DNA from: Candidatus Zixiibacteriota bacterium
Lineage (GTDB): Bacteria > Zixibacteria > MSB-5A5 > GN15 > FEB-12
Reading direction: 5' to 3'
Assembly (NCBI GenBank): GCA_041742355.1
Contig: JBGSIV010000150.1
Span: 1 to 29,012, forward strand
Length of the DNA: 29,012 bases
Position 1 is the stretch's first letter. Each line of letters opens with the position of its first letter. Below the pieces are notes generated by a model, which worked only from the letters and a program-made list of their open reading frames with translations, did not search any database and had not been told where the DNA came from. Below, one piece after another: positions 1,444 to 27,447 of the stretch. A program made the position numbers and the translations under genes.

Positions 1444-4400
1444 ATGAAACACTCAGGGTTCGCTCAGCTTCTTCTTACGCTGATTCTCTCTCTCACCTTT
1501 AGCGCCGTGGCCGCCGAGACGCCCCCTGTGCCGATCGACACGGTGGACGTGTGCGCCGGTGACAAGCTCTATGACACACTGGTAGTGAGCTTGACTGATC
1601 CGGCCGACACCAACGTGGCGATGGCGCTGGTCAACAGCCCGGGCACACTCACATGGGCTGTGGTGGGCGACAAGATTAACGGCTACTACGAGTACACGCC
1701 CGCTCAGGACACGATCTTCCAGATCGAATACCGGGTGCAGTTCTCGGAGACCGAGTCAGCCAACTACTTCCGGAAGTATGTGGTCCGTTACGACGAGGCC
1801 CCGACCATCGAAGACCAGTTCCGGTCGTTCAAGGTCTGCTGGCCGGGACCGCATTACCTGAAAGTCTACGCCTCCGATCCGGAGAGCAGGCCTTTGAGTT
1901 TCGCCATTCTTTCGGGCCCGGGGTCGATTGCCTCCGACGGCGTGATCACCTACACGCCCGACACGGCCGGCGTGTACACATTTTCGGTCGAAGTATCCGA
2001 CCTGTGCAGCAGCGACACGGCGATGATCTATGATACCGTCGTGTTCAACAGCTCGCCGGTGATCGTCCTCCCCGATAGCGTCTTCTCCCTGTGTGCACCA
2101 AGCGAAATCTGTTTTGACTTCTTCTTTTCCGATCGCGACGGGGATCAGGTGTGGTTCGAGCAGGTCGGCGGGCCGGGCTCGACATCCGTAATCAATGATT
2201 CTACCGGCCGGACCTGTTTCACGCCGGCCAACCTCGACAGTGCCTGGTACACATTCTACTATAGCTATCTCGACAACTGCGAAGGCGTCGACAAAGCCCT
2301 GGCCAACCCGGACTGGATGTACGACAGCCTCCGCGTCCTCGTGATCGTCAACGAGCCGCCGGTCATCAGCTGTCCCGAAGCACAGGAGTTCTTCTCCTGC
2401 GTGACCGACACCTTCTGCTTCAATGTCGAAGCCGTCGACCCCGAGATGGGGCCGGTCCAGTTTAACGTCCTTTCCGGCAATGCCTGGATGGATCAGGCCG
2501 GGAAGGTCTGCTTCGAAGGCAGCCAGTCGTCGCAGTTCACCGTCGTAATCGAGGCGGTGGACGAGTGCGGCGCAACCGATACATGCAGCGTGCCGGTGAC
2601 GGTGAACGGCAACCGCCCTCCGTATGTCCAGACGGCGGCCGACTTCGCCCTGACCCTCTGCGTACCTGAGACCATCTGCTTCTCGGCGACCGCCGATGAT
2701 CCTGACTTCGATCTGGCCAGCGTCACCGTCAATCTGGGTACTTGGGACGACGCGACCGACCGGGTCTGTTTCGTGCCCGAAGGTCCGGGCGTCTATGAAA
2801 TAATCGTAACCGCGACCGACTCGTGCGGGATCTCCGATGCCGACACGACGGTTGTCACGGTCAGCATGCCCGACAAACCGATGGTCGATCTCGGCGCCGA
2901 TTTCGACGCCCCGCTGTGCGGCGCGTTCGAAGTCTGCGTCAACGCTGACATCGTGGCCGACACCATCATCTCGTACATTCTGCCACAGGAGAATATCTAC
3001 AGCTTTGATCCCCAGACCGGGAAGATCTGCTTCACGCCCGACACCGCTGGCGTCTACACGGTGATCTTCGGGGTGCTCGGGGAATGCGGCTTCGAGGATA
3101 GAGACACGGTCAACGTGACCGTCAGCTTCCCGCCGTCGCCGTTTGTCAACCTCGGTGTCGATCAGAATCAGGCGCTTTGTGAGCCGGAGGAGATTTGCGT
3201 CGACGTCCAGACAGTCGCCGCCTGGAAGTCACTCACGAGCAACTTCGGCAACTACAACAGCGAAACCGGCCAGTTCTGCTTCTGGGCCGATACGGCCGGA
3301 ACGTACCGCTTGATCGCGACCGTGGTCGATTCGTGCGACCTCACTGCTTCGGACACCATTCTGGTGACAATCGAAATGAACACGCTTCCGGTGATCGCCC
3401 TGGGGTATGATCAGCATATCCCGCTCTGCGAACCGGACTCGATCTGTATTCCGTTTGAAACGCTGATCGACCAGGAGTCCGAAGCCCTCCAGCTCGTCTC
3501 CAATTTCGGCAGCATCGATCCGACCGGCGCAGTGTGTTTCCTGGCCGATACCGCCGGCACCTACGAGATCATCGTAACCGCGACCGACGATTGCGGCGCG
3601 GCCGATTCAGATACTATAATGGTGACGGTCGAACTGGCCGGCCCGAGCAGCCTTGACCTCGGCGACGATTTCACCGCCAACCTCTGCGCTCCCGAAGAGA
3701 TTTGCATTGATGTCGCCTGGATGGCCGATGAGCCGGTGTTCCAGCTTCCCGAATTCGGGTACTTCGACTCGCGTACCGGCAAGTTCTGCTTCACGCCCGC
3801 CGAAGCCGGCACCTACACGGTCATTTTCGGCATGACCGATATCTGCCAGCGGTTCCTTGCCGATACGGTCGAAGTAACCGTTACCCTGGCATCCGTGCCG
3901 TTTGTCACGCTCGACGACGACATGAATATTAAGCAGTGCGTACCCGAGCCAATCTGTGTCGATGTCTCGACCATCGCCAACTACGTCTCGCTGACGCCGT
4001 CGCTTGGGACCTATGACCCATCAACCGGTCAGGTTTGCTTCACGCCCAGTGAGGCCGGCTCGTACCTCCTGATCGTGTCGGTGGTCGATTCCTGCGGGGC
4101 CTCGGTGGCCGACACCTGCAGTATCACCGTCGACTTCGGAAACGCCCCGGTCATTGCTTCCCTGCCGGATACGACCATGTACCTGTGTTATGCGCAGTGG
4201 GTCTGCCTGCCGCTCTCCGTCACCGACAGCGACAACGACATCGCCACCGTTACCGTGAACCGCGGTATGGTGACCGACGACGGCCGGGTGTGCTTCGTGC
4301 CTTATACCGGCGGCGTCTTTAGTATCATCGTCACCGCGACCGACAGCTGCGGCAACCAGGATGTGGACACCTGCGAGGTGACGGTCAAGACCGATGAAGA

Positions 4401-7400
4401 CGTCCAGATCGAGTGCCCGACCGATACGACCGTCTTCACCTGCAATCTCGTCGACACGTTCTGCTTCGCCGTGCCGGGGATTCCGGAAGGGGCGACGGTG
4501 ACGGTCAGCGGCATCAATACGACGTGGAACCCGGAGACGCAGTCGGTCTGCTTCTGGTCACAGTGCTCGAACCAGAACCGGATCCGCATGACTATCACCA
4601 CGGCCTGCTCCGTTTACGACTGCGATTTCACGGTGACGGTGTTGTGCAACGCCGCGCCGGTGGTCTTCCTGCCGAAGGACACCACGGTGGGCACCTGTGG
4701 TCCGACCAGCATGTGTTTCCCGGTCGGTATCAGTGATGCCAACCGAAACCTCATGACGGTGAACGTGACCGGCGGCGTGTACAACCCGCGCACCGGCCGC
4801 GTCTGTGTCGATCTGGGTTACTCCGGGACGCAGGAAGTCATCGTGACCGCGATCGACTCCTGCGGCCTCTCGGCCACCGACCGCATGAACATCATGATCA
4901 GGCCGAATACGCCGCCCGATGTGACCGTTGACGCTCCTGATTCGACGTACACCCAGTGCATGCCGACCCAGATCTGCCTGCCGGTCACGATATCCGATAT
5001 CGACGGACAGCAGGTGACAGTCACGTACGTCACGCCCGGCTTCACGTACAGCAGCCAGGGGTCGTTGATCTGCTTCACGCCGGATACGACCGGTCGCTAC
5101 TGCGGGAAGATCGTCGTTACCGATGAATGCGGCGTGCCCGACACGGCCGGGTTCTGCGTGAACGTTGAAACCGGCAGCTACGTCAGCATCCAGTGCCCGA
5201 CCGAGGGTGCGTTCGAATACGATCTCTGTGCGCCGGCCAGCATCTGTATCCCAATGGTCGTCACCGGCCCTGACTTCCAGGTCACGACCACCTACGGCCA
5301 GTGGACCAACAACCAGCTCTGCTTCAACGCAGATTCAGCCGGCACCTACAATATCCAGGTGATCGGAGCTTCCGAATGCAATGCAGACACCTGCTTCGTC
5401 ACGGTCAACGTGCGGATTGCTCCGCCGGTTTCGATTACCTGCCCCGGCGATACGACTCTCTTCAACTGCGCTCCGGATACCCTCTGCCTGCCGTACAGCG
5501 CCTCCGCTTCGGTTAGCAATATGGCCGTGATCGGCGACGCGTACCTGGGTGAAGGAACGGTTTGCGTCCCGATGCCATCCGGCAGCGGCTCCAAAACCAT
5601 CACCCTGATCGGCACGGGCGAGTGCGGCGCCGACACGTGCAGCTTCACGGTCACCTACGCCACCAATCGCCCGCCATCAATCGTGCTGACCACACCGAAC
5701 GCGGTCACGACCTGCACCACGGCCGACGTGTGCGTCAAGTACACGGCAACCGACCCGGACAACAACATTGTCTCGATTGTTGCGGGCGCCGGAGTGGTCG
5801 GAGCCGACTCGATCTGCTTCTCCGGCTTGGCTATCGGTACGCACGAGATCATTGCGACCGTGACCGATGCCTGCGGTGCCACGGCCAAAGACACGGTCCT
5901 CATCCGCGTCCTGCCTGGCGTAAGCGCGACCATCATCTGCCCGACGGTCCTTCCGGTCGACACCATCTGTGCGCCGGATACTATCTGCGTGACGGCGCCG
6001 GTGAGCCCGGCCAACGCGATAGTGACGATCTCGCCCGTGGGATACTACAATACCGCGACCGGGCAGGCCTGTATCCCGGTGAGCGCGACCGGCACGATCA
6101 AGGTCAAGGTGATAGCGACCGCGCCCTGCGGCAACGACACCTGTGATTTCGATATCAACGTGGTTCGGGCGGAAGCTCCGACAGTCACTGTCCGTGCCAC
6201 CATGGATACGCTGCTCTGCCTGACCGGTCCGAAGACGATCAAGTACCCGGTGACTATCACCGGCACCCGGGTCAACGTGACGGTGAGCAGCCCGGCGACG
6301 TACAGCAACGGCGAGGTCTCGCTCACGGTCAGCCAGCCGGGAACCTACCCGATTACCGTGACCGCAACCGGTTTCTGCGGGACAGCCAGCAAGACCACGA
6401 CGATAACGGTCCGCAAGGACCAGGCCCCGGTTGTGACGGTTCCGGCTACCCAGACCTTCGAGCGGTGCCCCGGTGACACCGAAGTGATTTGTATCGACGG
6501 GATTTCCGCGACCGACGCTGAATCGACCCCGGCTCTTTCCATGGTCTGCGGCGTGGGCGAATTCACCCATCTCGGCTCGGCCAGCGGCGGCATCTGCTTC
6601 GTGCCGGATACCATGGGCCTGTACGCCTTCTGCTTCGAAGCCTCGGATGGCTGCAACATGGCCCTCGACACGATGTATGTCGAGATTATCGAAAAGGAAG
6701 ACTGCGACGTGTGCGTGCGGCTCAGCATCGAGAGCGGCGGGTGTACTCCCGTCGGCGTGAACAAGCAGGTCGAGCTCATGATCGAGACCAACACTCCGGT
6801 CGGCGGCTTCGACGTCCTGCTTTCGTTCGACAAATCGGTGCTGACGTTCAACTGGGTAACACCCGGAGCCGCGATCGACGGCTGGGAATACTTCACCTAC
6901 CGGCTCGATGACGTGACCTGCGGTACCTCGTGCCCGTCGCGCTACCTGCGCATGGTCGGTATTGCCGACATGAACAACGGCGCCGCGCACCCGCCCCAGT
7001 CGGCCCTGTCGCCGAACGGTGTGTTCGCCACGATCGAGTTCTACGTCGCCAACGACCAGAACCTCGGTGACCAGTTCCTCCCGATCAAATTCTACTGGTT
7101 CGATTGTGGTGACAACAGCTTCTCCGACCCGACCGGGGTCAACCAGTACATCGATATCCGGATCTTCAACCACGAGGGTCTCTACCTGTGGGATGAGTAC
7201 GACGAGATCAACTTCCGGGAAGCCAATCGCCCCGCCGGCCTCGGCGCGAAGGATCAATGCATCCAGGAAGTGCCCGGCAAGCCGGCCGCCCAGCGCTGCA
7301 TCGAGTTCTACAACGGCGGCATCTGGGTCTGCCACCCCGATTCTCTCGATGATCGCGGCGACGTCAATCTCAACGGCGTAGCCTACGAAATCGGCGATGC

Positions 7401-8208
7401 GGTCGTCTTCTCGAACTACTTCATCTACGGCTTCTCGGCCTTCACCGTCAGCATCCCCGGCCAGACCGCGGCCACCGACGTGAATGCGGATGGCTTAACG
7501 CTGACAGTGGCCGACTTGGTCTACCTGATCCGGGTCATTATCGGCGATGCCGTCGCTCTGCCGCGCCTGAACCCGTACCAGGGCGAGATCGCCGTCGATG
7601 CGATTCGCGAGGACGGGTCGGTGGCGATCGTTTCGAACGCCCCCGGTGAAATTGGCGGCGCCTACCTCGTCTACCGGCTCGATGAGGGCATGACCGTGCA
7701 TAACGTAGCCCCAGGCGTCGGTGCCGAGGGCATGGACCTGATGTGGCGGGTGGTAGACAACCAGCTGCGCGTCCTGATCTTCGACATTGGCCAGAACGCG
7801 GTTGCCCCGGGCGAACAGGAACTGCTGAAGATCGATCTCTCCGGCTCCGGTGAATTGCTCCGGGTGAAATCCGAGGTGGTCGACTACCAGGGCGCTCCGT
7901 ACCGCATCGCGGCCGGCAAGGGGACCTTACCGACCACGTGCACCCTGGACCAGAACTATCCCAACCCGTTCAATCCGACTACGACGATCGGGTTCTCTTT
8001 GCCGCAGGCGGCCGACTGGATGCTGGAGATCTACAACGTCAACGGCAACCTGGTCTGCAGCTTCACCGGTGCGGCCGACGCGGGCAGCGTGTCGGTCACG
8101 TGGGATGGTACGGCGACCGACGGCAGCCGGGTGGCCTCGGGTGTGTACCTGTACCGCCTTGAAGCCGGCGAGTTCACCGATACGAAGAAGATGATTCTGC
8201 TCAAGTAA
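1444..8208 (+). CDS. Giant secreted protein: Cys-rich Ig/cadherin-like repeats, cohesin-like, dockerin-like and T9SS/FlgD-type C-terminal domains
   Basis: 2254 aa; signal peptide ending AVA-A; about 19 repeats of about 85 aa; cohesin-like segment (GGFDVLLSFDKSVLTF...WEYFTYR); duplicated dockerin loops (GDVNLNG...IGDAV and TDVNADG...VADLVYL); C-terminal LDQNYPNPFNPTTTI...WDG...VASGVYLYRL...KKMILLK. Confidence 0.92.
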   Translation: MKHSGFAQLLLTLILSLTFSAVAAETPPVPIDTVDVCAGDKLYDTLVVSLTDPADTNVAMALVNSPGTLTWAVVGDKINGYYEYTPAQDTIFQIEYRVQFSETESANYFRKYVVRYDEAPTIEDQFRSFKVCWPGPHYLKVYASDPESRPLSFAILSGPGSIASDGVITYTPDTAGVYTFSVEVSDLCSSDTAMIYDTVVFNSSPVIVLPDSVFSLCAPSEICFDFFFSDRDGDQVWFEQVGGPGSTSVINDSTGRTCFTPANLDSAWYTFYYSYLDNCEGVDKALANPDWMYDSLRVLVIVNEPPVISCPEAQEFFSCVTDTFCFNVEAVDPEMGPVQFNVLSGNAWMDQAGKVCFEGSQSSQFTVVIEAVDECGATDTCSVPVTVNGNRPPYVQTAADFALTLCVPETICFSATADDPDFDLASVTVNLGTWDDATDRVCFVPEGPGVYEIIVTATDSCGISDADTTVVTVSMPDKPMVDLGADFDAPLCGAFEVCVNADIVADTIISYILPQENIYSFDPQTGKICFTPDTAGVYTVIFGVLGECGFEDRDTVNVTVSFPPSPFVNLGVDQNQALCEPEEICVDVQTVAAWKSLTSNFGNYNSETGQFCFWADTAGTYRLIATVVDSCDLTASDTILVTIEMNTLPVIALGYDQHIPLCEPDSICIPFETLIDQESEALQLVSNFGSIDPTGAVCFLADTAGTYEIIVTATDDCGAADSDTIMVTVELAGPSSLDLGDDFTANLCAPEEICIDVAWMADEPVFQLPEFGYFDSRTGKFCFTPAEAGTYTVIFGMTDICQRFLADTVEVTVTLASVPFVTLDDDMNIKQCVPEPICVDVSTIANYVSLTPSLGTYDPSTGQVCFTPSEAGSYLLIVSVVDSCGASVADTCSITVDFGNAPVIASLPDTTMYLCYAQWVCLPLSVTDSDNDIATVTVNRGMVTDDGRVCFVPYTGGVFSIIVTATDSCGNQDVDTCEVTVKTDEDVQIECPTDTTVFTCNLVDTFCFAVPGIPEGATVTVSGINTTWNPETQSVCFWSQCSNQNRIRMTITTACSVYDCDFTVTVLCNAAPVVFLPKDTTVGTCGPTSMCFPVGISDANRNLMTVNVTGGVYNPRTGRVCVDLGYSGTQEVIVTAIDSCGLSATDRMNIMIRPNTPPDVTVDAPDSTYTQCMPTQICLPVTISDIDGQQVTVTYVTPGFTYSSQGSLICFTPDTTGRYCGKIVVTDECGVPDTAGFCVNVETGSYVSIQCPTEGAFEYDLCAPASICIPMVVTGPDFQVTTTYGQWTNNQLCFNADSAGTYNIQVIGASECNADTCFVTVNVRIAPPVSITCPGDTTLFNCAPDTLCLPYSASASVSNMAVIGDAYLGEGTVCVPMPSGSGSKTITLIGTGECGADTCSFTVTYATNRPPSIVLTTPNAVTTCTTADVCVKYTATDPDNNIVSIVAGAGVVGADSICFSGLAIGTHEIIATVTDACGATAKDTVLIRVLPGVSATIICPTVLPVDTICAPDTICVTAPVSPANAIVTISPVGYYNTATGQACIPVSATGTIKVKVIATAPCGNDTCDFDINVVRAEAPTVTVRATMDTLLCLTGPKTIKYPVTITGTRVNVTVSSPATYSNGEVSLTVSQPGTYPITVTATGFCGTASKTTTITVRKDQAPVVTVPATQTFERCPGDTEVICIDGISATDAESTPALSMVCGVGEFTHLGSASGGICFVPDTMGLYAFCFEASDGCNMALDTMYVEIIEKEDCDVCVRLSIESGGCTPVGVNKQVELMIETNTPVGGFDVLLSFDKSVLTFNWVTPGAAIDGWEYFTYRLDDVTCGTSCPSRYLRMVGIADMNNGAAHPPQSALSPNGVFATIEFYVANDQNLGDQFLPIKFYWFDCGDNSFSDPTGVNQYIDIRIFNHEGLYLWDEYDEINFREANRPAGLGAKDQCIQEVPGKPAAQRCIEFYNGGIWVCHPDSLDDRGDVNLNGVAYEIGDAVVFSNYFIYGFSAFTVSIPGQTAATDVNADGLTLTVADLVYLIRVIIGDAVALPRLNPYQGEIAVDAIREDGSVAIVSNAPGEIGGAYLVYRLDEGMTVHNVAPGVGAEGMDLMWRVVDNQLRVLIFDIGQNAVAPGEQELLKIDLSGSGELLRVKSEVVDYQGAPYRIAAGKGTLPTTCTLDQNYPNPFNPTTTIGFSLPQAADWMLEIYNVNGNLVCSFTGAADAGSVSVTWDGTATDGSRVASGVYLYRLEAGEFTDTKKMILLK
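1795..6702 (+). repeat. About 19 tandem protein-level repeats (about 85 aa each), diverged at DNA level
   Basis: Recurring pattern [N/P]xxP-x(n)-C-x5-C-...-(D-x-D)-...-G-x-x-C-F-x-P-x-x-x-G-x-Y-...-D-x-C-G-...-D-T-x-x-V-x-V, aligned by eye. Confidence 0.85.
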
Positions 8209-20945: not shown

Positions 20946-21272
20946 ATGACCAAGCCGATTACGGTGACGGATGATTCATTCGAGCGCGAAGTGATCCAGT
21001 CCGACAAGCCGGTCATCGTCGACTTCTGGGCCACCTGGTGTGGGCCGTGCAAAATGATCGCCCCGATCCTCGAGGAAATGGCCAACGAGTACTCCGACCG
21101 GGTCAAGATCGCCAAGATTGACGTGGACTCCAACAACCAGGTCGCCGCGAAATTCGGCATCATGTCGATTCCATCGCTCCTGTTCTTCAAGAACGGCGAG
21201 GAGGTTGACCGCGTGGTCGGTGCGGTGCCTAAGTCGCAGCTGTCCCAGCGGCTGGACAAGGTTTTGGCGTAA
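20946..21272 (+). CDS. trxA: Thioredoxin
   Basis: 108 aa; VDFWATWCGPCKMIAP and SIP cis-Pro; GGAGGA RBS at 20932-20937. Confidence 0.97.
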   Translation: MTKPITVTDDSFEREVIQSDKPVIVDFWATWCGPCKMIAPILEEMANEYSDRVKIAKIDVDSNNQVAAKFGIMSIPSLLFFKNGEEVDRVVGAVPKSQLSQRLDKVLA

Positions 21273-21294: not shown

Positions 21295-21323
21295 AACGCC
21301 GGCAGCACGCTGCCGGCGTTTTT
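21295..21323 (+). terminator. Intrinsic terminator after trxA
   Basis: AACGCCGGCAG-CACG-CTGCCGGCGTT followed by TTT. Confidence 0.85.
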
Positions 21324-21444
21324 GCGTGGAGCGCAGACCGGACACCGATGGAACTTTTGTTCCGACCGGCCGATTTAAGGTGAGAGAGCAATATGTGGCG
21401 GACTGGACAATGTTCTTGATTTTCCCGGAGGTTGCCGTTTAGAT

Positions 21445-21663
21445 ATGGATTGGTATGACATCGTGTTTCTGGCAGCGTTTCTGGTTATCTGGCTGGTACT
21501 CATCACCAGGGTCCTGCCCAAGTACGGCGGCGGCTGAATGGCCGGTCGCTGTGATATAAATCTTCCGGGCGAAGATAAGAAGAAAGAAGATCTGCAGGGT
21601 TCAACCGAGCGGCGGGAAATCGAGAATAAACCGACCGATCGGTCGGATACGGATATCACGTGA
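21445..21663 (+). CDS. Candidate small single-TM selenoprotein (72 aa, UGA at codon 31, U-x4-C motif); 30-aa membrane peptide if UGA is a stop
   Basis: ATG 21445 is the first ATG after an in-frame TAA at 21376; GGAGG at 21427-21431. Reads MDWYDIVFLAAFLVIWLVLITRVLPKYGGG, TGA (21535-21537), MAGRCDINLPGEDKKKEDLQGSTERREIENKPTDRSDTDIT, TGA (21661-21663). It fills the otherwise empty trxA-rhomboid gap. Confidence 0.7.
21560..21576 (+). promoter_or_regulatory. Putative bacterial SECIS-like hairpin
   Basis: ATCTTC-CGGGC-GAAGAT: perfect 6-bp stem, G-rich loop with G at position 2, loop starting 29 nt 3' of the UGA. Confidence 0.45.
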
Positions 21664-21692: not shown

Positions 21693-22517
21693 ATGAGGTA
21701 CAACCAGACTTATGACCAGCCGCGCGGCGGCATGAGCTTCGGCCCTGGGGGCCTTTCCCCCTGGATCAAGTGGATGCTCATTGCCAATGGCGGTATGTTC
21801 GTCGCGCAGTTGCTCTACCCGACCATCACGGGCTACCTGGGCCTGGCGCCGGGCCGCTTCTTTTCCGATTTCCCCAATTGGCTCTATACGCCGTTCACTT
21901 ACATGTTCCTCCACGGCGGCTTCCTCCACCTGGCGTTCAACATGTTTGCCCTGTGGATGTTCGGCACCGAAATCGAGTTCACCTGGGGAACGAAACCGTT
22001 CCGCCTCTTCTATCTCCTCGCCGGCTTGTCCGGTGGGTTGCTTACGCTTATAGTCAATCCGGGGGACGCTACGATTACCGTCGGCGCGTCAGCCGCCATT
22101 TACGGCGTGCTCGTCTCCTACTGGTTCATGTTCCCCAATCGCATGCTCTACATATACTTCCTCATCCCGGTCAAGGTCAAGTACGCCATCCCCGGCATGA
22201 TGATCCTGGTATTCCTAACCGGCGGCGCCACCATCGCCCACATGGCCCACCTCGGCGGCGCCCTCTTCGCCGTCCTCTATATGAAGTTCGACTGGCAATG
22301 GCTGCGCTTCGGTCGGACAATAAAAAACTTGCGTTATCGCCGGAAAGAAGCCAAGCTTCAGAAGAACCGGGAACGAGCTGAAGACATCATGAAGCGGGTC
22401 GATGCCATCCTCGACCGCATCAATGAAGTCGGCATCGACAACCTGACACCGGCGGAGCGAAAGTTTCTGGAGGAGGCATCGTCCAAGCTTTCCAGCAAAT
22501 CCGGGGAAGACAGTTAG
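21693..22517 (+). CDS. Rhomboid intramembrane serine protease with C-terminal DUF6576-like helical domain
   Basis: FTYMFLHGGFLHLAFNM, catalytic GAS (VGASAAIYG) and AHMAHLGGA; tail VDAILDRINEVGIDNLTPAERKFL. Start ATG 21693 or TTG 21690. Confidence 0.93.
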   Translation: MRYNQTYDQPRGGMSFGPGGLSPWIKWMLIANGGMFVAQLLYPTITGYLGLAPGRFFSDFPNWLYTPFTYMFLHGGFLHLAFNMFALWMFGTEIEFTWGTKPFRLFYLLAGLSGGLLTLIVNPGDATITVGASAAIYGVLVSYWFMFPNRMLYIYFLIPVKVKYAIPGMMILVFLTGGATIAHMAHLGGALFAVLYMKFDWQWLRFGRTIKNLRYRRKEAKLQKNRERAEDIMKRVDAILDRINEVGIDNLTPAERKFLEEASSKLSSKSGEDS

Positions 22518-22522
22518 AAACC

Positions 22523-23725
22523 ATGCGCAGAAAGATACTCCTCGCCGAACAATCCGAAGCCACCCGACGGGTCGCCGACACTATCCTCCGCCAGCAGGGA
22601 TTTGAAGTTGTCGCGGTCGCCGACGGCGCTGCGGCGGTCGATTTTATCTCCAACGGCCGCCCCGACCTCGTTCTGGTCGGCTGCGAGCTGTCCTACCGCG
22701 ATCAGCCGGTCTACCAGCTGGCTCAGCAGATGATCACCGGCGACGACCGCCCCATCCTCGTTTTCACCAATATCGGCAAAACCATCGACGGAGTGCCGCC
22801 GGAACTGACCATCCCCCGCCCTTTTGACCCCCGCGACTTCCTAGAGAAGGTCACCGCCGCAATCGGGCGGCATGTCGGCGCCAGGCCCGCCGCCGACATC
22901 GACACCCCCCTCGGATCGGTCGACGATGACCTGCTCGATGCCGCGCTGGGGTTGGGCACCACCGGGTCCATCCGCGTCACCGAGTCGGAGGTCATGAACG
23001 GCACCCGCAAGCTTCGGACGCCGTCATCCGGACACGACGACGACCTGGATCGCACCGGGCGGATCGAGTCGATTGTCATCGCCGACGATCAGACCGATAT
23101 CCGCCTTCCCGACACAACGAAAGTCAAGCGCCCCGCCGCCGAGGCACCCGATACAGGCAATCTGGATATCCTCGGCGACCAGTACGGTCTCTCGGATCCG
23201 GCGGCCTTCCGCCAGCAGCAGAGTGCAGAGGACCTGACCCACGACTACCACTGGTTTGTCAGCGAGATGCAGAAAGAAGCCGACCATTCGCCGACCGGAC
23301 CTGCCCAGTCGGGTCGGGCCGCGGCAGGAAACTCACCCGACGAACTCGTGTTCACGGAACCGTCTTCCACGCTCGAACCCTTCAATCCGAAAGGGCACAT
23401 CGATCCTCCAGCACAGAAGAAGGACACCGGCGGGGTGGAGAAATTCATTGATGAGTTCAAACGGGAGGTCGAGAAGTTCCATGCCGATGAACCGGAGAGC
23501 CTGACCGTGCACGAAGAACCGCCCAAACCGGCCGACAACGCGAAGTGGGAAGAGATGGTCGAGAGCATCACGCCGGAGCGGGTGACCCTGTTCACCCGGC
23601 AACTGGCCTCCGAACTGGCCGAACGGATCGCCGAAAAAATAGTCGACAAGCTCGACTCCGACAAGCTGGCCGGCCTGATCAAAGCCGAGATCTTGGCCCA
23701 GCTGCGGACCAAAAAGAATCTCTGA
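22523..23725 (+). CDS. Atypical (pseudo-)receiver protein with acidic disordered linker and helical C-terminus
   Basis: KILLAEQS...GFEVVAVADG...RPDLVLVG...RPFD; the phospho-acceptor Asp position holds Gly; 5 nt after the rhomboid stop. Confidence 0.75.
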   Translation: MRRKILLAEQSEATRRVADTILRQQGFEVVAVADGAAAVDFISNGRPDLVLVGCELSYRDQPVYQLAQQMITGDDRPILVFTNIGKTIDGVPPELTIPRPFDPRDFLEKVTAAIGRHVGARPAADIDTPLGSVDDDLLDAALGLGTTGSIRVTESEVMNGTRKLRTPSSGHDDDLDRTGRIESIVIADDQTDIRLPDTTKVKRPAAEAPDTGNLDILGDQYGLSDPAAFRQQQSAEDLTHDYHWFVSEMQKEADHSPTGPAQSGRAAAGNSPDELVFTEPSSTLEPFNPKGHIDPPAQKKDTGGVEKFIDEFKREVEKFHADEPESLTVHEEPPKPADNAKWEEMVESITPERVTLFTRQLASELAERIAEKIVDKLDSDKLAGLIKAEILAQLRTKKNL

Positions 23726-23807
23726 TCGTACAAAGCTATGTGCCGGCGTCCGGCGAAATTGGACGTCACCGATCAACCGAATTCTCAGCCAGGGGAAGGC
23801 CACCGCC

Positions 23808-25772
23808 ATGATGGGACCATTCCAGCGCCACTTGTTCACGCTCATGCTGCTCTGTGCGTTTGCATTTTCCTTCGCTACCACTTTCGCCCAATCTGGTCAG
23901 TTCGACCTCGGCGACGCCGGTTTCGATGAAGTCGACATCGCTGTCACCGCCTCACTCGCGTCCGCTGTTGTCGCGCCGGGGCAGTCCTATCCCGCAACGG
24001 TGGTGATCGACATCGCCCACCCCTGGCACATCAACTCCGCCCAGCCCCGCGATGCCTTCCTGATCCCCTGCAAAGTCGAATTTGATGCGGCCCCGGGCCT
24101 CATCCCGCGTGACCCCCAGTACCCGCTGGGGGAGAAGCTCTTCCTTGCCGTCGATACGATGGTCGTTTACAGCGGAAAAACCGTCATCCCGTTTACTCTG
24201 GCGGTCAAACCCGATGCGACGCCCGGCCAGGTCACCCTGCCCATCAAAGTTACCTACCAGCCCTGCAACAGCACCGAATGCCGCGCGCCGAAAACCGTCA
24301 CAGTACAGCTGTCTTTCACAATCGGCGGGGCGGATGTCATGGCGGGGGCTCAGCCGCTTGACCAGAGCACGCAACCTGCCGCCACGACCGGTGACAACCC
24401 CCCGGCCGTTCCCGCCGTCAGCACCACCATCGAACCGGTCGCCGGCCAAACCGCCACCCCCACCCTCGCGACCGAAGATGAGAGCGACCTCGCCCGGTTG
24501 ATCCGGGAGCACGGATTCTGGGGATATTTCCTCGCGCTCGGCCTGGCCTTCGTCACCGGCCTGCTGCTGTCGTTCTCGCCCTGCACCTATCCTATGGTCC
24601 CGATTACCGTCAGCATCTTCGCCGGCCGTCAGCGCTCGATCGGCAAGGGCTTTTCCCTGTCGCTGGTGTACGTCGTTTCGATGGCCGTGGTCTACGGTCT
24701 GATGGGGCTCATCGTCTCACTCGTCGGGGGCGTCTTCGGCGCCTGGCTGGCCAGCCCCCCGGTCGTGATCGCGATCGTCATCATCTTCGTCGTGTTCGCG
24801 CTCTCCATGTTTGGCCTCTACGAACTCCAGGTCCCGATGTCCCTGCGCAGCAAACTCGGCCGGGGCGCGCAGGGGGGAGGCGTCTTCAGCGTGGTCCTGC
24901 TCGGAATTGTCGCCGCGCTCGTAGTCTCACCGTGCGTCGGCCCGTTCGTCGCCGGGATCCTCATCTATGTCGCGGCCAGCGGCTCACCGGCCATCGGCTT
25001 TCTCGTCCTGTTCATCTTCGCCCTGGGACTGGGGACGCTCTACGTCCTGATCGGGACATTCTCCTCCGCAATCAACAAACTCCCCGGTTCGGGCGAGTGG
25101 ATGGAGTCGGTCAAAAAATTCTTCGGATTCGTGCTCCTGCTCATGGCGCTGTACTTCGTCCGGACCCTGATCGAACCCTGGCTGGCCGCCCTCTTGACCG
25201 GCCTGCTCCTCGTCGCTTTCGGCGTCTTCGGCGGCGGGCTCGACCGCCTCACCCCGCGCTCCGCGTTCTTCCCGCGCCTCAAGAAGTTCCTCGGGGTCTT
25301 GGCCCTCATTATCGGGATTTACCTCCTCGCCGGTGTGCTCTTCACCCAGGGGCTCATCCTCCCGGCCGCCGCGCAGTGGTTCCCCTCCATCGGCGGATCG
25401 ACAGCGCCGGCTAAACACCTGATCTCCTGGGAAACCGAACTCGAACAGGGGCTCGCCCGCGCGCAACGGGAAGGGAAGCCGGTCGTTATCGACACCTGGG
25501 CCACCTGGTGCGCCAATTGCCGGGTGCTGGAGAAAGAAACGTTCGGCAATCCCGAGGTCGCGGCGAAAATCTCCGAGCGGTTCGTCCCGATCAAAGTCCA
25601 GCTCGAAAACGCCGACACGGAAATCACGCGCGGCTTCATGACCCGCTTTGGCATGAGCCACTATTCCCTCCCGACCACGCTCCTGCTCGATTCGCGTGGA
25701 GACGTCACCCGCGTCCTGCGCGGCGTCATCGAGCCGTCCAAAATGATCGACGAACTGAACCGGGTTTCGTAG
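23808..25772 (+). CDS. dsbD: Thiol:disulfide interchange protein DsbD (alpha, beta and gamma domains)
   Basis: Signal peptide; alpha domain WHINS...YQPCNSTEC; TM domain SPCTYPMVP, VSPCVGP, GEWMESVK; thioredoxin-like domain WATWCANC. Confidence 0.9.
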   Translation: MMGPFQRHLFTLMLLCAFAFSFATTFAQSGQFDLGDAGFDEVDIAVTASLASAVVAPGQSYPATVVIDIAHPWHINSAQPRDAFLIPCKVEFDAAPGLIPRDPQYPLGEKLFLAVDTMVVYSGKTVIPFTLAVKPDATPGQVTLPIKVTYQPCNSTECRAPKTVTVQLSFTIGGADVMAGAQPLDQSTQPAATTGDNPPAVPAVSTTIEPVAGQTATPTLATEDESDLARLIREHGFWGYFLALGLAFVTGLLLSFSPCTYPMVPITVSIFAGRQRSIGKGFSLSLVYVVSMAVVYGLMGLIVSLVGGVFGAWLASPPVVIAIVIIFVVFALSMFGLYELQVPMSLRSKLGRGAQGGGVFSVVLLGIVAALVVSPCVGPFVAGILIYVAASGSPAIGFLVLFIFALGLGTLYVLIGTFSSAINKLPGSGEWMESVKKFFGFVLLLMALYFVRTLIEPWLAALLTGLLLVAFGVFGGGLDRLTPRSAFFPRLKKFLGVLALIIGIYLLAGVLFTQGLILPAAAQWFPSIGGSTAPAKHLISWETELEQGLARAQREGKPVVIDTWATWCANCRVLEKETFGNPEVAAKISERFVPIKVQLENADTEITRGFMTRFGMSHYSLPTTLLLDSRGDVTRVLRGVIEPSKMIDELNRVS

Positions 25773-25899
25773 CGCTGCCGCGTTGTCGCGCAGTACATAA
25801 TCCCTCAATCTCCCCAAACCTGATCGTCCGCCTGTCAAGGATTTCTTTCCGCCGTCTTCTTCGCGCGGATTTTTCCGGCAAATTATCCGGCGAGTAACC

Positions 25900-25929
25900 T
25901 TGACGCCGCCGAATCCGGGCATATATATT
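25900..25929 (+). promoter_or_regulatory. Sigma70-like promoter
   Basis: TTGACG (25900-25905) and TATATT (25924-25929) with 18-nt spacer, or TATATA with 16-nt spacer. Confidence 0.55.
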
Positions 25930-25965
25930 CCTGCGTGTACTGGAACTCCAAGTCTTAAGGGATAT

Positions 25966-26709
25966 ATGTCGCGCACTAAGAAAAACGACTCGGTCATTGC
26001 GATCTGCATACAGGAGCCGACCGAAGACGGTTCATCCATGGAGTTCGGCGCCATCCAGGGCGATTCCGTGCGGTTTCTGCACCAGGCGTTTATCACCGAC
26101 ACCATTACCCACGCCCTCGATGCCGACGCTGATGTCTGGCTGTTCTACGCCGACATCCCCGAACGCGAGCGGCTGGTGGGGATTATTACCGAGTATCTGA
26201 AAAAGAAAACCACCGGCAAGCGGGCAACCGCGCTGAAAAACAATTTCAAGTCGATCAAGCTCCCGGACGAACGCTGGGGCCTGCGCATCGAACAAGTCTT
26301 CAAGGACGCCTTCGCCGGCGAATACAATCATGTCCTGGTGATCGGCAGCCGCACGCCGACTGTGAAGACCGACCAGATGAACCGCGCCCTGCGCATGCTG
26401 CGCGAGTCGGACGCCGTGTTCGGCCCGACCCCCGAGGGCCGCTACTACGTGATCGGCATGTCCGGCGAGTATCGCGTCAAGCTCTCCGAGTACGACTGGA
26501 AATCGCCGTCGATCTACCACGATGTCTCCGAGGCCTTCACCGCCCAGGGCTTGCGCTGGGCCGAGCTCGAAATCTGGTACTGCGTGGAAGACGCCGATCA
26601 GCTCGAACTGATGGTTCGGGACATCAACCAGTTCCGCTTCGAAGGCGACGAATCCACCGCCCGCGAAACCGAACTGGTCATCGAACGCCTGCTCTCGCGG
26701 ATGGAGTAG
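25966..26709 (+). CDS. DUF2064 / TIGR04282 (CofC-like) family protein, degenerate
   Basis: AFITDT, WGLRIEQVF, VLVIGSRTP, DAVFGPTPEGRYYVIGM, WYCVE. Start moved to ATG 25966 (AAGGGA RBS) because the track's TTG start is the -35 box. Confidence 0.75.
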   Translation: MSRTKKNDSVIAICIQEPTEDGSSMEFGAIQGDSVRFLHQAFITDTITHALDADADVWLFYADIPERERLVGIITEYLKKKTTGKRATALKNNFKSIKLPDERWGLRIEQVFKDAFAGEYNHVLVIGSRTPTVKTDQMNRALRMLRESDAVFGPTPEGRYYVIGMSGEYRVKLSEYDWKSPSIYHDVSEAFTAQGLRWAELEIWYCVEDADQLELMVRDINQFRFEGDESTARETELVIERLLSRME

Positions 26710-26712
26710 CCC

Positions 26713-27447
26713 GTGCAGCGTCAACTGCAGCGCCTCAGCTGGCTTCGTATCCGAGACCTCGTCCCGTCGCAGATCGACACGGTCATTCTGCCGGTCGGCA
26801 CGGTCGAGGCCCACGGCTCCGCCTGCCTCGGCACCGATAACTTCATTCCCGAAGACATCGCCCTCGGCATCGCCGATCGCCTCAACGCGCTCGTTGCACC
26901 CATCGTCAACTACGGCATCACCAAATCTCTCCTGCGGTACAATGGCGGCGCCACCATCAAGCCGGAGACCTTCGCTGCGTACGTCCGCGATATCTTCGAC
27001 TCACTGGCCGATACCGGCTTCCGGAATGTTATCCTGATGAACGGCCACGGCGGCAACAACGCCGCCCTCAAGGATATCGCCTACGCGTTCCATGCCGAGC
27101 GGCGCGCCAATATCGCCGTGATCCACTGGTGGCAGCTCTGCGCTGAGATGACCACAGCGTTCTTCCAGCACGCCGGCGGCCACGCCGGAACCGACGAAAA
27201 CGCATACGTGATGGCGCTCGATCCGGATCTCGTCGACCGCGAACGCTACGACCCCGACCTCGCCTATACCCTCAACGCTGGCGCCGATGTCTATCCGGTG
27301 CCGGGATCGATCCTGCTGTACAAACAGGGGGAGGGGTACCCGGAATTCGATACCACGAAGGCGTCGGAGTACCGTGAGAAAGTTATTGCTGCGGTGGGTG
27401 AATTCGCCGAGATGGTCCTCGGGCGCTGGCGAAAATTCGGGCTCTAA
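26713..27447 (+). CDS. Creatininase family amidohydrolase
   Basis: ILPVGTVEAHG...GTD, NGHGGN, HAGTDE; 3 nt after the upstream stop. Confidence 0.9.
   Translation: MQRQLQRLSWLRIRDLVPSQIDTVILPVGTVEAHGSACLGTDNFIPEDIALGIADRLNALVAPIVNYGITKSLLRYNGGATIKPETFAAYVRDIFDSLADTGFRNVILMNGHGGNNAALKDIAYAFHAERRANIAVIHWWQLCAEMTTAFFQHAGGHAGTDENAYVMALDPDLVDRERYDPDLAYTLNAGADVYPVPGSILLYKQGEGYPEFDTTKASEYREKVIAAVGEFAEMVLGRWRKFGL

Follow-up and report, generated by a model that had tools for sequence, protein, structure and literature searches.

A small gene interrupted by an in-frame TGA

The window (the whole 29,012-nucleotide stretch of DNA analyzed, contig JBGSIV010000150.1 of a Candidatus Zixiibacteriota genome) contains a small gene located between a thioredoxin gene, trxA, and a rhomboid protease gene. 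The features of this region, with the main evidence for each in parentheses, are the following.

20946..21272, + strand: trxA (thioredoxin), upstream of the small gene (TIGR01068, above cut-off)
21296..21323, + strand: terminator-like hairpin and T run, between trxA and the small gene (fold z -3.1)
21445..21663, + strand: gene for a predicted 72-aa single-pass membrane selenoprotein (30 codons, UGA/Sec, 41 codons and stop)
21460..21516, + strand: predicted transmembrane signal-anchor, residues 6-24 (hydropathy, charge, AlphaFold2, invariant columns)
21535..21537, + strand: in-frame TGA, predicted U31 (codon conservation, Cys homologs)
21550..21552, + strand: TGT codon of Cys36, the sole Cys, five residues past U31 in a U-x4-C arrangement (protein-level selection)
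21560..21576, + strand: putative bacterial SECIS-type hairpin ATCTTC-CGGGC-GAAGAT (covariation, contrast between TGA and Cys genes)
21693..22517, + strand: rhomboid protease, downstream (PF01694; weak DUF6576 match below cut-off)
23808..25772, + strand: DsbD-like membrane electron transporter, three genes downstream (PF02683)

A sequence-only reading of the window had proposed that an open reading frame is split into 30 and 41 codons by a TGA, that it encodes an acidic N-terminus and a hydrophobic anchor followed by R and K, and that it ends shortly before the rhomboid gene. Translation of the + strand confirmed the split, and the frame is closed by another TGA, 29 nt before the rhomboid ATG (21693). 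The anchor is strongly hydrophobic (Kyte-Doolittle 19-mer mean of 2.76 for residues 6-24), and the charge pattern holds across 29 aligned homologs, with a net charge of -1 to -2 ahead of the helix and of +1 to +3 beyond it. W16 within the helix, then P25 and G28, are invariant in this alignment. AlphaFold2, given 29 homolog sequences, predicts a single helix at residues 3-27 (pLDDT ~90 at residues 1-20) and a remainder without structure. By the positive-inside rule the anchor is predicted to have its N-terminus outside and its C-terminus inside, and U31 and C36 would thus lie just inside the membrane. The tail that follows the U31-x4-C36 segment appears to be charged and disordered, and it is poorly conserved. 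The TGA immediately follows GGG in this gene, and the only Cys comes five residues later, as had also been read from the letters.

An opposite-strand ORF (21375-21659) was rejected as a true gene; the conserved residues and the codon are on the + strand. Two RNA runs gave small word shares and left the gene uncovered, and their contigs belong to other organisms. At the other end of the window, positions 1444-8208 encode a 2,254-aa protein that carries Ig/PKD-like repeats and ends in a T9SS-type/FlgD sorting domain.

The in-frame TGA is conserved across three phyla

An initial search with the window protein, at E<=1, hit 50 of 61 related genomes, and 29 of the matched sequences from the window's own phylum were used to build a profile. 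The profile matched 140 of 251 genomes of this phylum, once per genome, with at least one TGA inside 139 of the matches. Where codons were read, the site is TGA in 60 of 61 loci of the phylum and TGG in the remaining one. The TGG locus (L030; G034:C32:6562-6708, - strand) is a decayed copy that has lost its start and has a 1-nt frameshift near the 5' end; its hairpin is kept, trxA is no longer adjacent, and selA and selB are still in the genome. Two single-protein matches in genome contigs were both false and served only as the entry to two other phyla. Among Planctomycetota, entered through a Pirellulaceae record, 23 of 251 genomes match and all 23 loci have TGA. Among Myxococcota, 40 of 201 genomes match; the 25 loci read have TGA in 24 cases and TGC in one (L184). 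None of the 109 genome loci read (107 TGA, one TGG, one TGC) has TAA or TAG at this position; either codon would have spoken against the sequence-only reading.

A search of 1.84 billion representative proteins with the profile returned 200 matches. In the best 150 of these, the residue at the site is Cys in 82, the sequence ends there in 41, and W is found in 18; the rest have G (2), S (2), R (2) or A (1), or are without the motif (2). TGC or TGT codons were confirmed in the DNA of 80 metagenome loci, which were fetched by a Cys-containing pattern and are therefore uninformative on the Sec:Cys frequency. Genomes sampled without such a pattern yielded a single Cys form in 109 loci read, whereas the protein databases contain mostly Cys forms. 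Alignment of the Sec-set profile with the Cys-set profile gave 99.4% probability (E 1e-21). The predicted alignment of Cys with the UGA is thus seen in 82 of the best 150 protein hits and at the DNA level in the 80 loci and L184.

Sequence 3' of the UGA is conserved, a point that the sequence-only reading had named as support, and the hairpin described below covaries. In each of 40 loci the frame after the UGA stays open for 21 codons or more, while the other two frames are open for fewer than 20 codons in 13 and 33 of the 40, a comparison biased by the fact that these loci came from a profile spanning the tail. Gene-caller records for the family are products of 30-32 aa. On a tree of the ~38-residue core there are six Sec/Cys changes, compared with 49 when labels are shuffled; the core is too short and too sampling-biased for the order of these events to be derived from it.

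The codon pattern across the homologs, together with the machinery and the hairpin described below, indicates that UGA31 of the 72-aa gene is almost certainly decoded as Sec.

The database protein P0003 is almost identical to the product of locus L029 but has Arg at the Sec position, and represents either a TGA-to-CGA variant or a sequencing error. P0177, a cluster member expected to reveal W forms as products of TGA decoded as Trp, proved to be another fragment and is uninformative on this point. A tblastn search of plasmids found no match, and the ESM Atlas gave one unnamed cluster at 0.88, which we treat as a lead.

Selenocysteine machinery and genetic code

The sequence-only reading had proposed a check of the genome for Sec machinery, and selA, selB, selC and selD are all there. 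The sole tRNA with a TCA anticodon was called as tRNA-Sec (selC) and is encoded on the same contig (C4) as selA, which matched above cut-off. The selD match is also above cut-off and has its own in-frame TGA. selB is found as two pieces at contig ends (C4 and C18) that continue one another, each below cut-off alone. TGA is the commonest stop codon (576 of 1,273 ORFs of at least 400 aa) and so serves as an ordinary stop elsewhere in the genome, from which it follows that the genetic code is not reassigned. A second SelD-domain match above cut-off (G000:C106:2-631) is without TGA and belongs to a 694-codon open frame, possibly a SelD fusion.

Among genomes with at least 85% completeness, selA was detected in 22 of the 23 Planctomycetota carriers of the small gene compared with 188 of 251 Planctomycetota overall, and the exception has selB. 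In the window's phylum, selA was detected in 132 of 140 carriers compared with 102 of 111 non-carriers. This co-occurrence is weak evidence for a link because selA is common. Sec use looks very common in both phyla, given these 188 Planctomycetota genomes and the 234 of 251 genomes of the window's phylum that encode selA.

A SECIS-type hairpin accompanies TGA and is lost with Cys codons

The putative SECIS element has a 6 bp stem and the loop CGGGC, with G at loop position 2, and the loop lies 28 nt after the UGA. In the accessible part of a 2026 review (PMC13188914), the bSECIS model is described as a small apical loop with G in its first two positions and a spacing of 16-37 nt, and the 28-nt geometry of the candidate hairpin fits it.

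Across 29 aligned genes, 80% of cells are paired in the stem and 17 double-sided changes are found; neither value was reached in any of 500 shuffles. Sliding the partner along lowers the pairing to 35-67%, and one slide ties the covariation score. RNAalifold reported no consensus structure among the aligned genes, and the window hairpin on its own is not unusually stable (fold z -0.63), so the support for the hairpin is comparative. The SECIS-like hairpin noticed in the sequence-only reading is present, covaries and tracks TGA, but is not exceptional when folded alone.

We scored hairpins by a rule of our own, not by bSECISearch: a Watson-Crick stem of at least 4 bp and a 5-nt loop with G second, located 15-35 nt past the codon. 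The rule was derived from the set of 37 non-redundant TGA genes of the window's phylum, 29 of which have such a hairpin. Out of sample, it was detected in 16 of 23 Planctomycetota, 14 of 22 Myxococcota and 8 of 19 distant own-phylum TGA genes, compared with an expectation of 0.4-1.7 in shuffles of TGA genes. Cys genes are at chance level (3 of 62, compared with 2.7 in shuffles). Of all 126,604 TGA trinucleotides in the genome, 3.5% are followed by such a hairpin at 4 bp and 0.3% at 6 bp. The selD gene of the same genome has a hairpin of this form, with 6 bp. Rfam gave no match to a SECIS family, just two chance matches far under the gathering score.

In the window's phylum an LPxE motif is conserved after the UGA. 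As it coincides with the hairpin and is lost in Cys forms, it is probably imposed by the SECIS RNA.

The second cysteine is dispensable in Sec forms

The family motif is W-x8-P-x2-G-[IV]-x-T-(U/C)-x4-C, and Cys forms read T-C-MSGxC. The GGG that precedes the TGA was rejected as a family motif, as it is not conserved and is a local variant of G-[IV]-x-T. U-x4-C is unlike the standard thioredoxin-type spacing.

An MxxxC pattern downstream of the UGA had been expected to be conserved, and this held in part: Cys is at +5 in 30 of 37 own-phylum Sec forms (the non-redundant Sec genes) and in 20 of 23 from Planctomycetota, and is missing there in the rest. A second Cys is absent altogether within 10 residues in 7 of the 37, in 2 of the 23, in 5 of 19 distant own-phylum Sec forms and in 6 of 22 from Myxococcota. 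All 82 Cys forms have a second Cys within 8 residues (77 at +5), although the profile favors such sequences; some have additional Cys (CC, CxC).

Where Cys36 is present, it appears to be under protein-level selection, given that both TGT and TGC are used for it (19 and 14, respectively, in 40 loci). It is likely to be a resolving cysteine. This distribution of the second Cys fits a nucleophilic Sec whose resolving Cys is optional more readily than it fits a metal site with two ligands.

Gene neighborhood

The sequence-only reading named trxA and dsbD as neighbors. trxA is directly upstream, but the dsbD-like gene is three genes off, beyond the rhomboid and a receiver-domain gene. In genomes of the same order, trxA is upstream in 38 of 41 loci and the rhomboid is downstream in 41 of 41; in some families a CoA-binding gene intervenes between trxA and the small gene. 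Of 20 more distant loci of the phylum, 13 retain trxA and 7 the rhomboid. Overall, trxA is upstream in four families of the phylum, one of which has the order trxA, CoA-binding gene, small selenoprotein gene and, directly downstream, an OsmC-family gene. In two other families neither trxA nor the rhomboid adjoins (trxA in 0 of 7). No rhomboid was seen beside the gene in loci of other phyla. Of 20 extended regions, 17 contain a DsbD match (9) or a weak DsbD/CcdA-type match (8). A rhomboid or DsbD as an obligatory partner was rejected.

In the window, positions 21693-27447 are a conserved run of rhomboid, receiver-domain, DsbD or shorter DsbD/CcdA-like, DUF2064 glycosyltransferase-like and creatininase-like genes. 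DUF2064/TIGR04282-like glycosyltransferase and creatininase-like genes are found in all 20 extended regions; the DUF2064-like match in the window is below cut-off.

Several neighbors recur in other lineages. In 62 Cys loci we detected zf-HC2 anti-sigma factors (22), thioredoxin or CcdA-thioredoxin (16), cytochrome bd-I/cbb3 (13), RND efflux (8), metallo-beta-lactamase (MBL)-rhodanese or rhodanese (6), DUF302 (5), SQR-like flavoproteins (3), TauE (2), CoA-disulfide-reductase-like/rhodanese proteins (2) and BshB1 (2). Further neighbors elsewhere include YeeE, ECF sigma/zf-HC2 anti-sigma pairs and a persulfide-dioxygenase-like MBL/rhodanese fusion. Families of this thiol/sulfur-redox kind are known to handle sulfide and persulfide. 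A thiol/sulfur-redox gene lies within 1.7 kb in 25 of 62 Cys loci and in 6 of 23 Planctomycetota loci. In Myxococcota, where 36 of 63 ORFs were scanned, ~4 of 25 loci have such a neighbor; all of these are raw counts without a background rate, from crude ORF calls on many short loci and from kin that are not independent. One Myxococcota locus repeats the ECF/zf-HC2 and rhodanese arrangement. Many Myxococcota copies stand alone, and the downstream genes elsewhere vary or sit on the opposite strand.

Seven loci (L084, L101, L105, L136, L147, L149 and L150) have a recurring cluster around the small gene that comprises a zf-HC2 anti-sigma factor, a cytochrome bd subunit I-like/cbb3-type cytochrome c fusion and a ~380-aa membrane protein without NCBIfam match. 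In P0066, a Cys homolog runs into a thioredoxin domain (208 aa); this single sequence is either a natural fusion or a missed stop. Just upstream of one Myxococcota copy, the short ORF L203:1659-1850 (- strand) looks similar, on inspection by eye, to the C-terminal portion of a HesB-like selenoprotein and has no Pfam match at 1e-5.

Proposed function and alternative explanations

Given the trxA synteny and the sulfur-detoxification neighbors in other phyla, we propose that the protein carries a Sec/Cys redox site, tethered to the membrane and facing the cytoplasm, that thioredoxin recycles, and give this mechanism as a whole a probability of roughly 0.5. SelB, directed by the hairpin, almost certainly inserts Sec at UGA31. 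The first ~27 residues would anchor the protein with its N-terminus outside, presenting U31-x4-C36 at the cytoplasmic face of the inner membrane. There, the selenolate would attack an oxidant or sulfane sulfur at the membrane surface (a peroxide, a poly- or persulfide, or the disulfide of a partner), Cys36 would resolve the adduct, giving an intramolecular selenylsulfide that TrxA of the cytoplasm would reduce again. Sec would be the essential nucleophile, and the resolving Cys may be expendable where Sec is present. The substrate class is probably connected to peroxide or sulfane-sulfur stress. Thioredoxin as the recycling partner is favored because trxA is the steadiest neighbor, but a terminator-like hairpin parts it from the gene in the window, two families of the phylum have no adjoining trxA, and thiol/sulfur-redox neighbors are confined to the 25 of 62, 6 of 23 and ~4 of 25 loci noted above.

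Alternatively, the selenoprotein could use U-x4-C at the membrane to bind soft metals or metalloids (Cu, Ag, Hg, As) and pass them to exporters, which is unlikely in our assessment. RND efflux genes near 8 of the 62 Cys loci and 2 of the 23 Planctomycetota loci, an ArsP-type permease near one locus, the extra Cys of some Cys forms (CC, CxC) and the DUF2064/TIGR04282-like glycosyltransferase downstream in all 20 extended regions would agree with metal handling, but about one-fifth of Sec forms are without the second ligand, no recurring MerR/CsoR/CopA/MerA-type module was found among the scanned neighbors, and the commonest enzyme neighbors are thioredoxin-type genes. In another explanation, which we also consider unlikely, the protein is switched by redox state and adapts or regulates a partner in the membrane. 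In the window's order this partner would be the rhomboid; in Planctomycete-type loci it would be an anti-sigma factor or a cytochrome bd-like complex. Toward the rhomboid it might act as a substrate, an inhibitor or a quality-control cofactor, by analogy with SELENOS and derlins; in the accessible part of PMC13524514, derlins are the rhomboid-family partners of SELENOS. A role of this kind could explain why W16, P25 and G28 are invariant, beyond the needs of a plain anchor, and it is consistent with the rhomboid that follows in 41 of 41 loci and with the zf-HC2 anti-sigma (22 of 62) and cytochrome bd-I/cbb3 (13 of 62) genes adjoining Cys loci. Against it, no rhomboid adjoins in 13 of the 20 more distant own-phylum loci or in any locus seen in other phyla, partners vary with lineage, and many Myxococcota copies are solitary.

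Two further explanations concern the UGA itself. The gene could be a selenium-sensing leader peptide, in which read-through of the UGA governs how the next gene is translated, with the protein product of little importance. It is the first gene past the terminator-like hairpin, its end is close to the rhomboid start (29 nt) and its tail is weakly conserved; this explanation is nonetheless highly improbable, as Cys-codon homologs without the hairpin retain the protein motif, downstream genes differ between loci or are encoded on the other strand, and Cys36 is encoded by both codons. Barely credible is a true stop, with a 30-aa membrane peptide and a hairpin of other purpose, or a UGA reassigned to Trp or Gly. 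The recorded products of 30-32 aa would agree with termination, but TAA and TAG are absent from the 109 loci, and the hairpin goes with TGA and vanishes with Cys codons. W in 18 and G in two of the best 150 database matches, together with the real TGG of the decayed copy, might point to reassignment, but TGA is the commonest stop of long ORFs, the only TCA-anticodon tRNA is tRNA-Sec, and the W and G forms are probably alternative-code gene calls.

Comparison with known families and selenoproteins

The window protein has no Pfam or NCBIfam match, and a search of PDB sequences gave nothing below E 0.25. Against NCBIfam, 29 Sec members gave only weak, unrelated matches (best E 0.039). None of 66 database members is in NCBIfam, and Pfam gave two single, unrelated matches to them. 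YgaP-like TM (PF11127), DUF302, YeeE and TauE small membrane proteins adjoin homologs in several lineages, and the window protein matches none of these Pfam families.

With bSECIS selenoproteins, as described in the accessible part of PMC13188914, the gene shares an in-frame UGA, a small-loop hairpin (28 nt), SelA/B/C/D and Cys homologs. It differs from typical bacterial selenoproteins in being without a thioredoxin fold, a CxxU/UxxC motif or an HMM family, and in comprising a single predicted helix and a disordered tail. The modeled single helix and the x4 spacing likewise set it apart from the thioredoxin-fold selenoproteins with UxxC or CxxU. Table 1 of PMC13188914 (119 families) has no entry with this family or motif, and literature searches on the motif or on selenocysteine in Zixibacteria gave no relevant listing.

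The likeness to eukaryotic SELENOS is an analogy of working only, with no similarity in sequence expected: according to the accessible part of PMC13524514, it likewise combines an anchor, a disordered Sec segment, a selenylsulfide with a resolving Cys and a rhomboid-family partner. Its Sec-Cys spacing is 14 residues compared with 5 here, the Sec of the window protein would be next to the membrane, and the rhomboid linkage is confined to one order. SELENOK is presumably a second eukaryotic analogue of such a small membrane selenoprotein. Both SELENOS and SELENOK have Sec near the C-terminus and a eukaryotic 3'-UTR SECIS, unlike the window protein, in which Sec is residue 31 of 72 and the hairpin is in the coding region. 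A more speculative reading, based on the synteny in one order, is a bacterial counterpart that arose by convergence, an anchored, disordered Sec adaptor that would work with the rhomboid and TrxA to reduce and remove oxidized or mis-disulfide-bonded membrane proteins. We consider this very unlikely; if true, it would amount to a redox-coupled, ERAD-like quality control in bacteria.

The family itself is not new. One paper's supplement (deep-Sep) already includes it among predicted selenoproteins, with a placeholder for a name. This label points to Geobacter-type organisms and is absent from the accessible portions of that paper's main text and Table S1, as well as from PMC13188914. The supplement entries seen and the window gene share a short hydrophobic N-terminus, LP-x2-G-[IV]-x-T-U-x4-C and a charged tail, with a core of ~50-60 aa. 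Six entries, compared by eye with our alignments, have a TM helix and LP-x2-G-x2-T-U-x4-C in a protein of ~50-70 aa, and one is identical to the profile hit P0127 at 29 of 41 residues (also by eye). The window form differs from these entries by GGG in place of G-[IV]-x-T, by two codons inserted ahead of the hairpin and by its longer tail. We found no analysis of function, distribution, SECIS or neighborhood for the placeholder family in the literature. If our interpretation is right, it confirms a very small selenoprotein family whose members gene callers either truncate to 30-32 residues or overlook. One copy occurs in more than half of the genomes sampled from the window's phylum, and the family is also found in ~9-20% of sampled Planctomycetota and Myxococcota. 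A 72-residue, one-helix U-x4-C protein is easily synthesized and assayed, which makes a role of Sec at the membrane surface directly testable. Beyond the earlier prediction, the present analysis shows how widely the family is distributed, how Sec and Cys genes differ in the SECIS hairpin, that Sec forms can dispense with the second Cys, and which neighbors recur.
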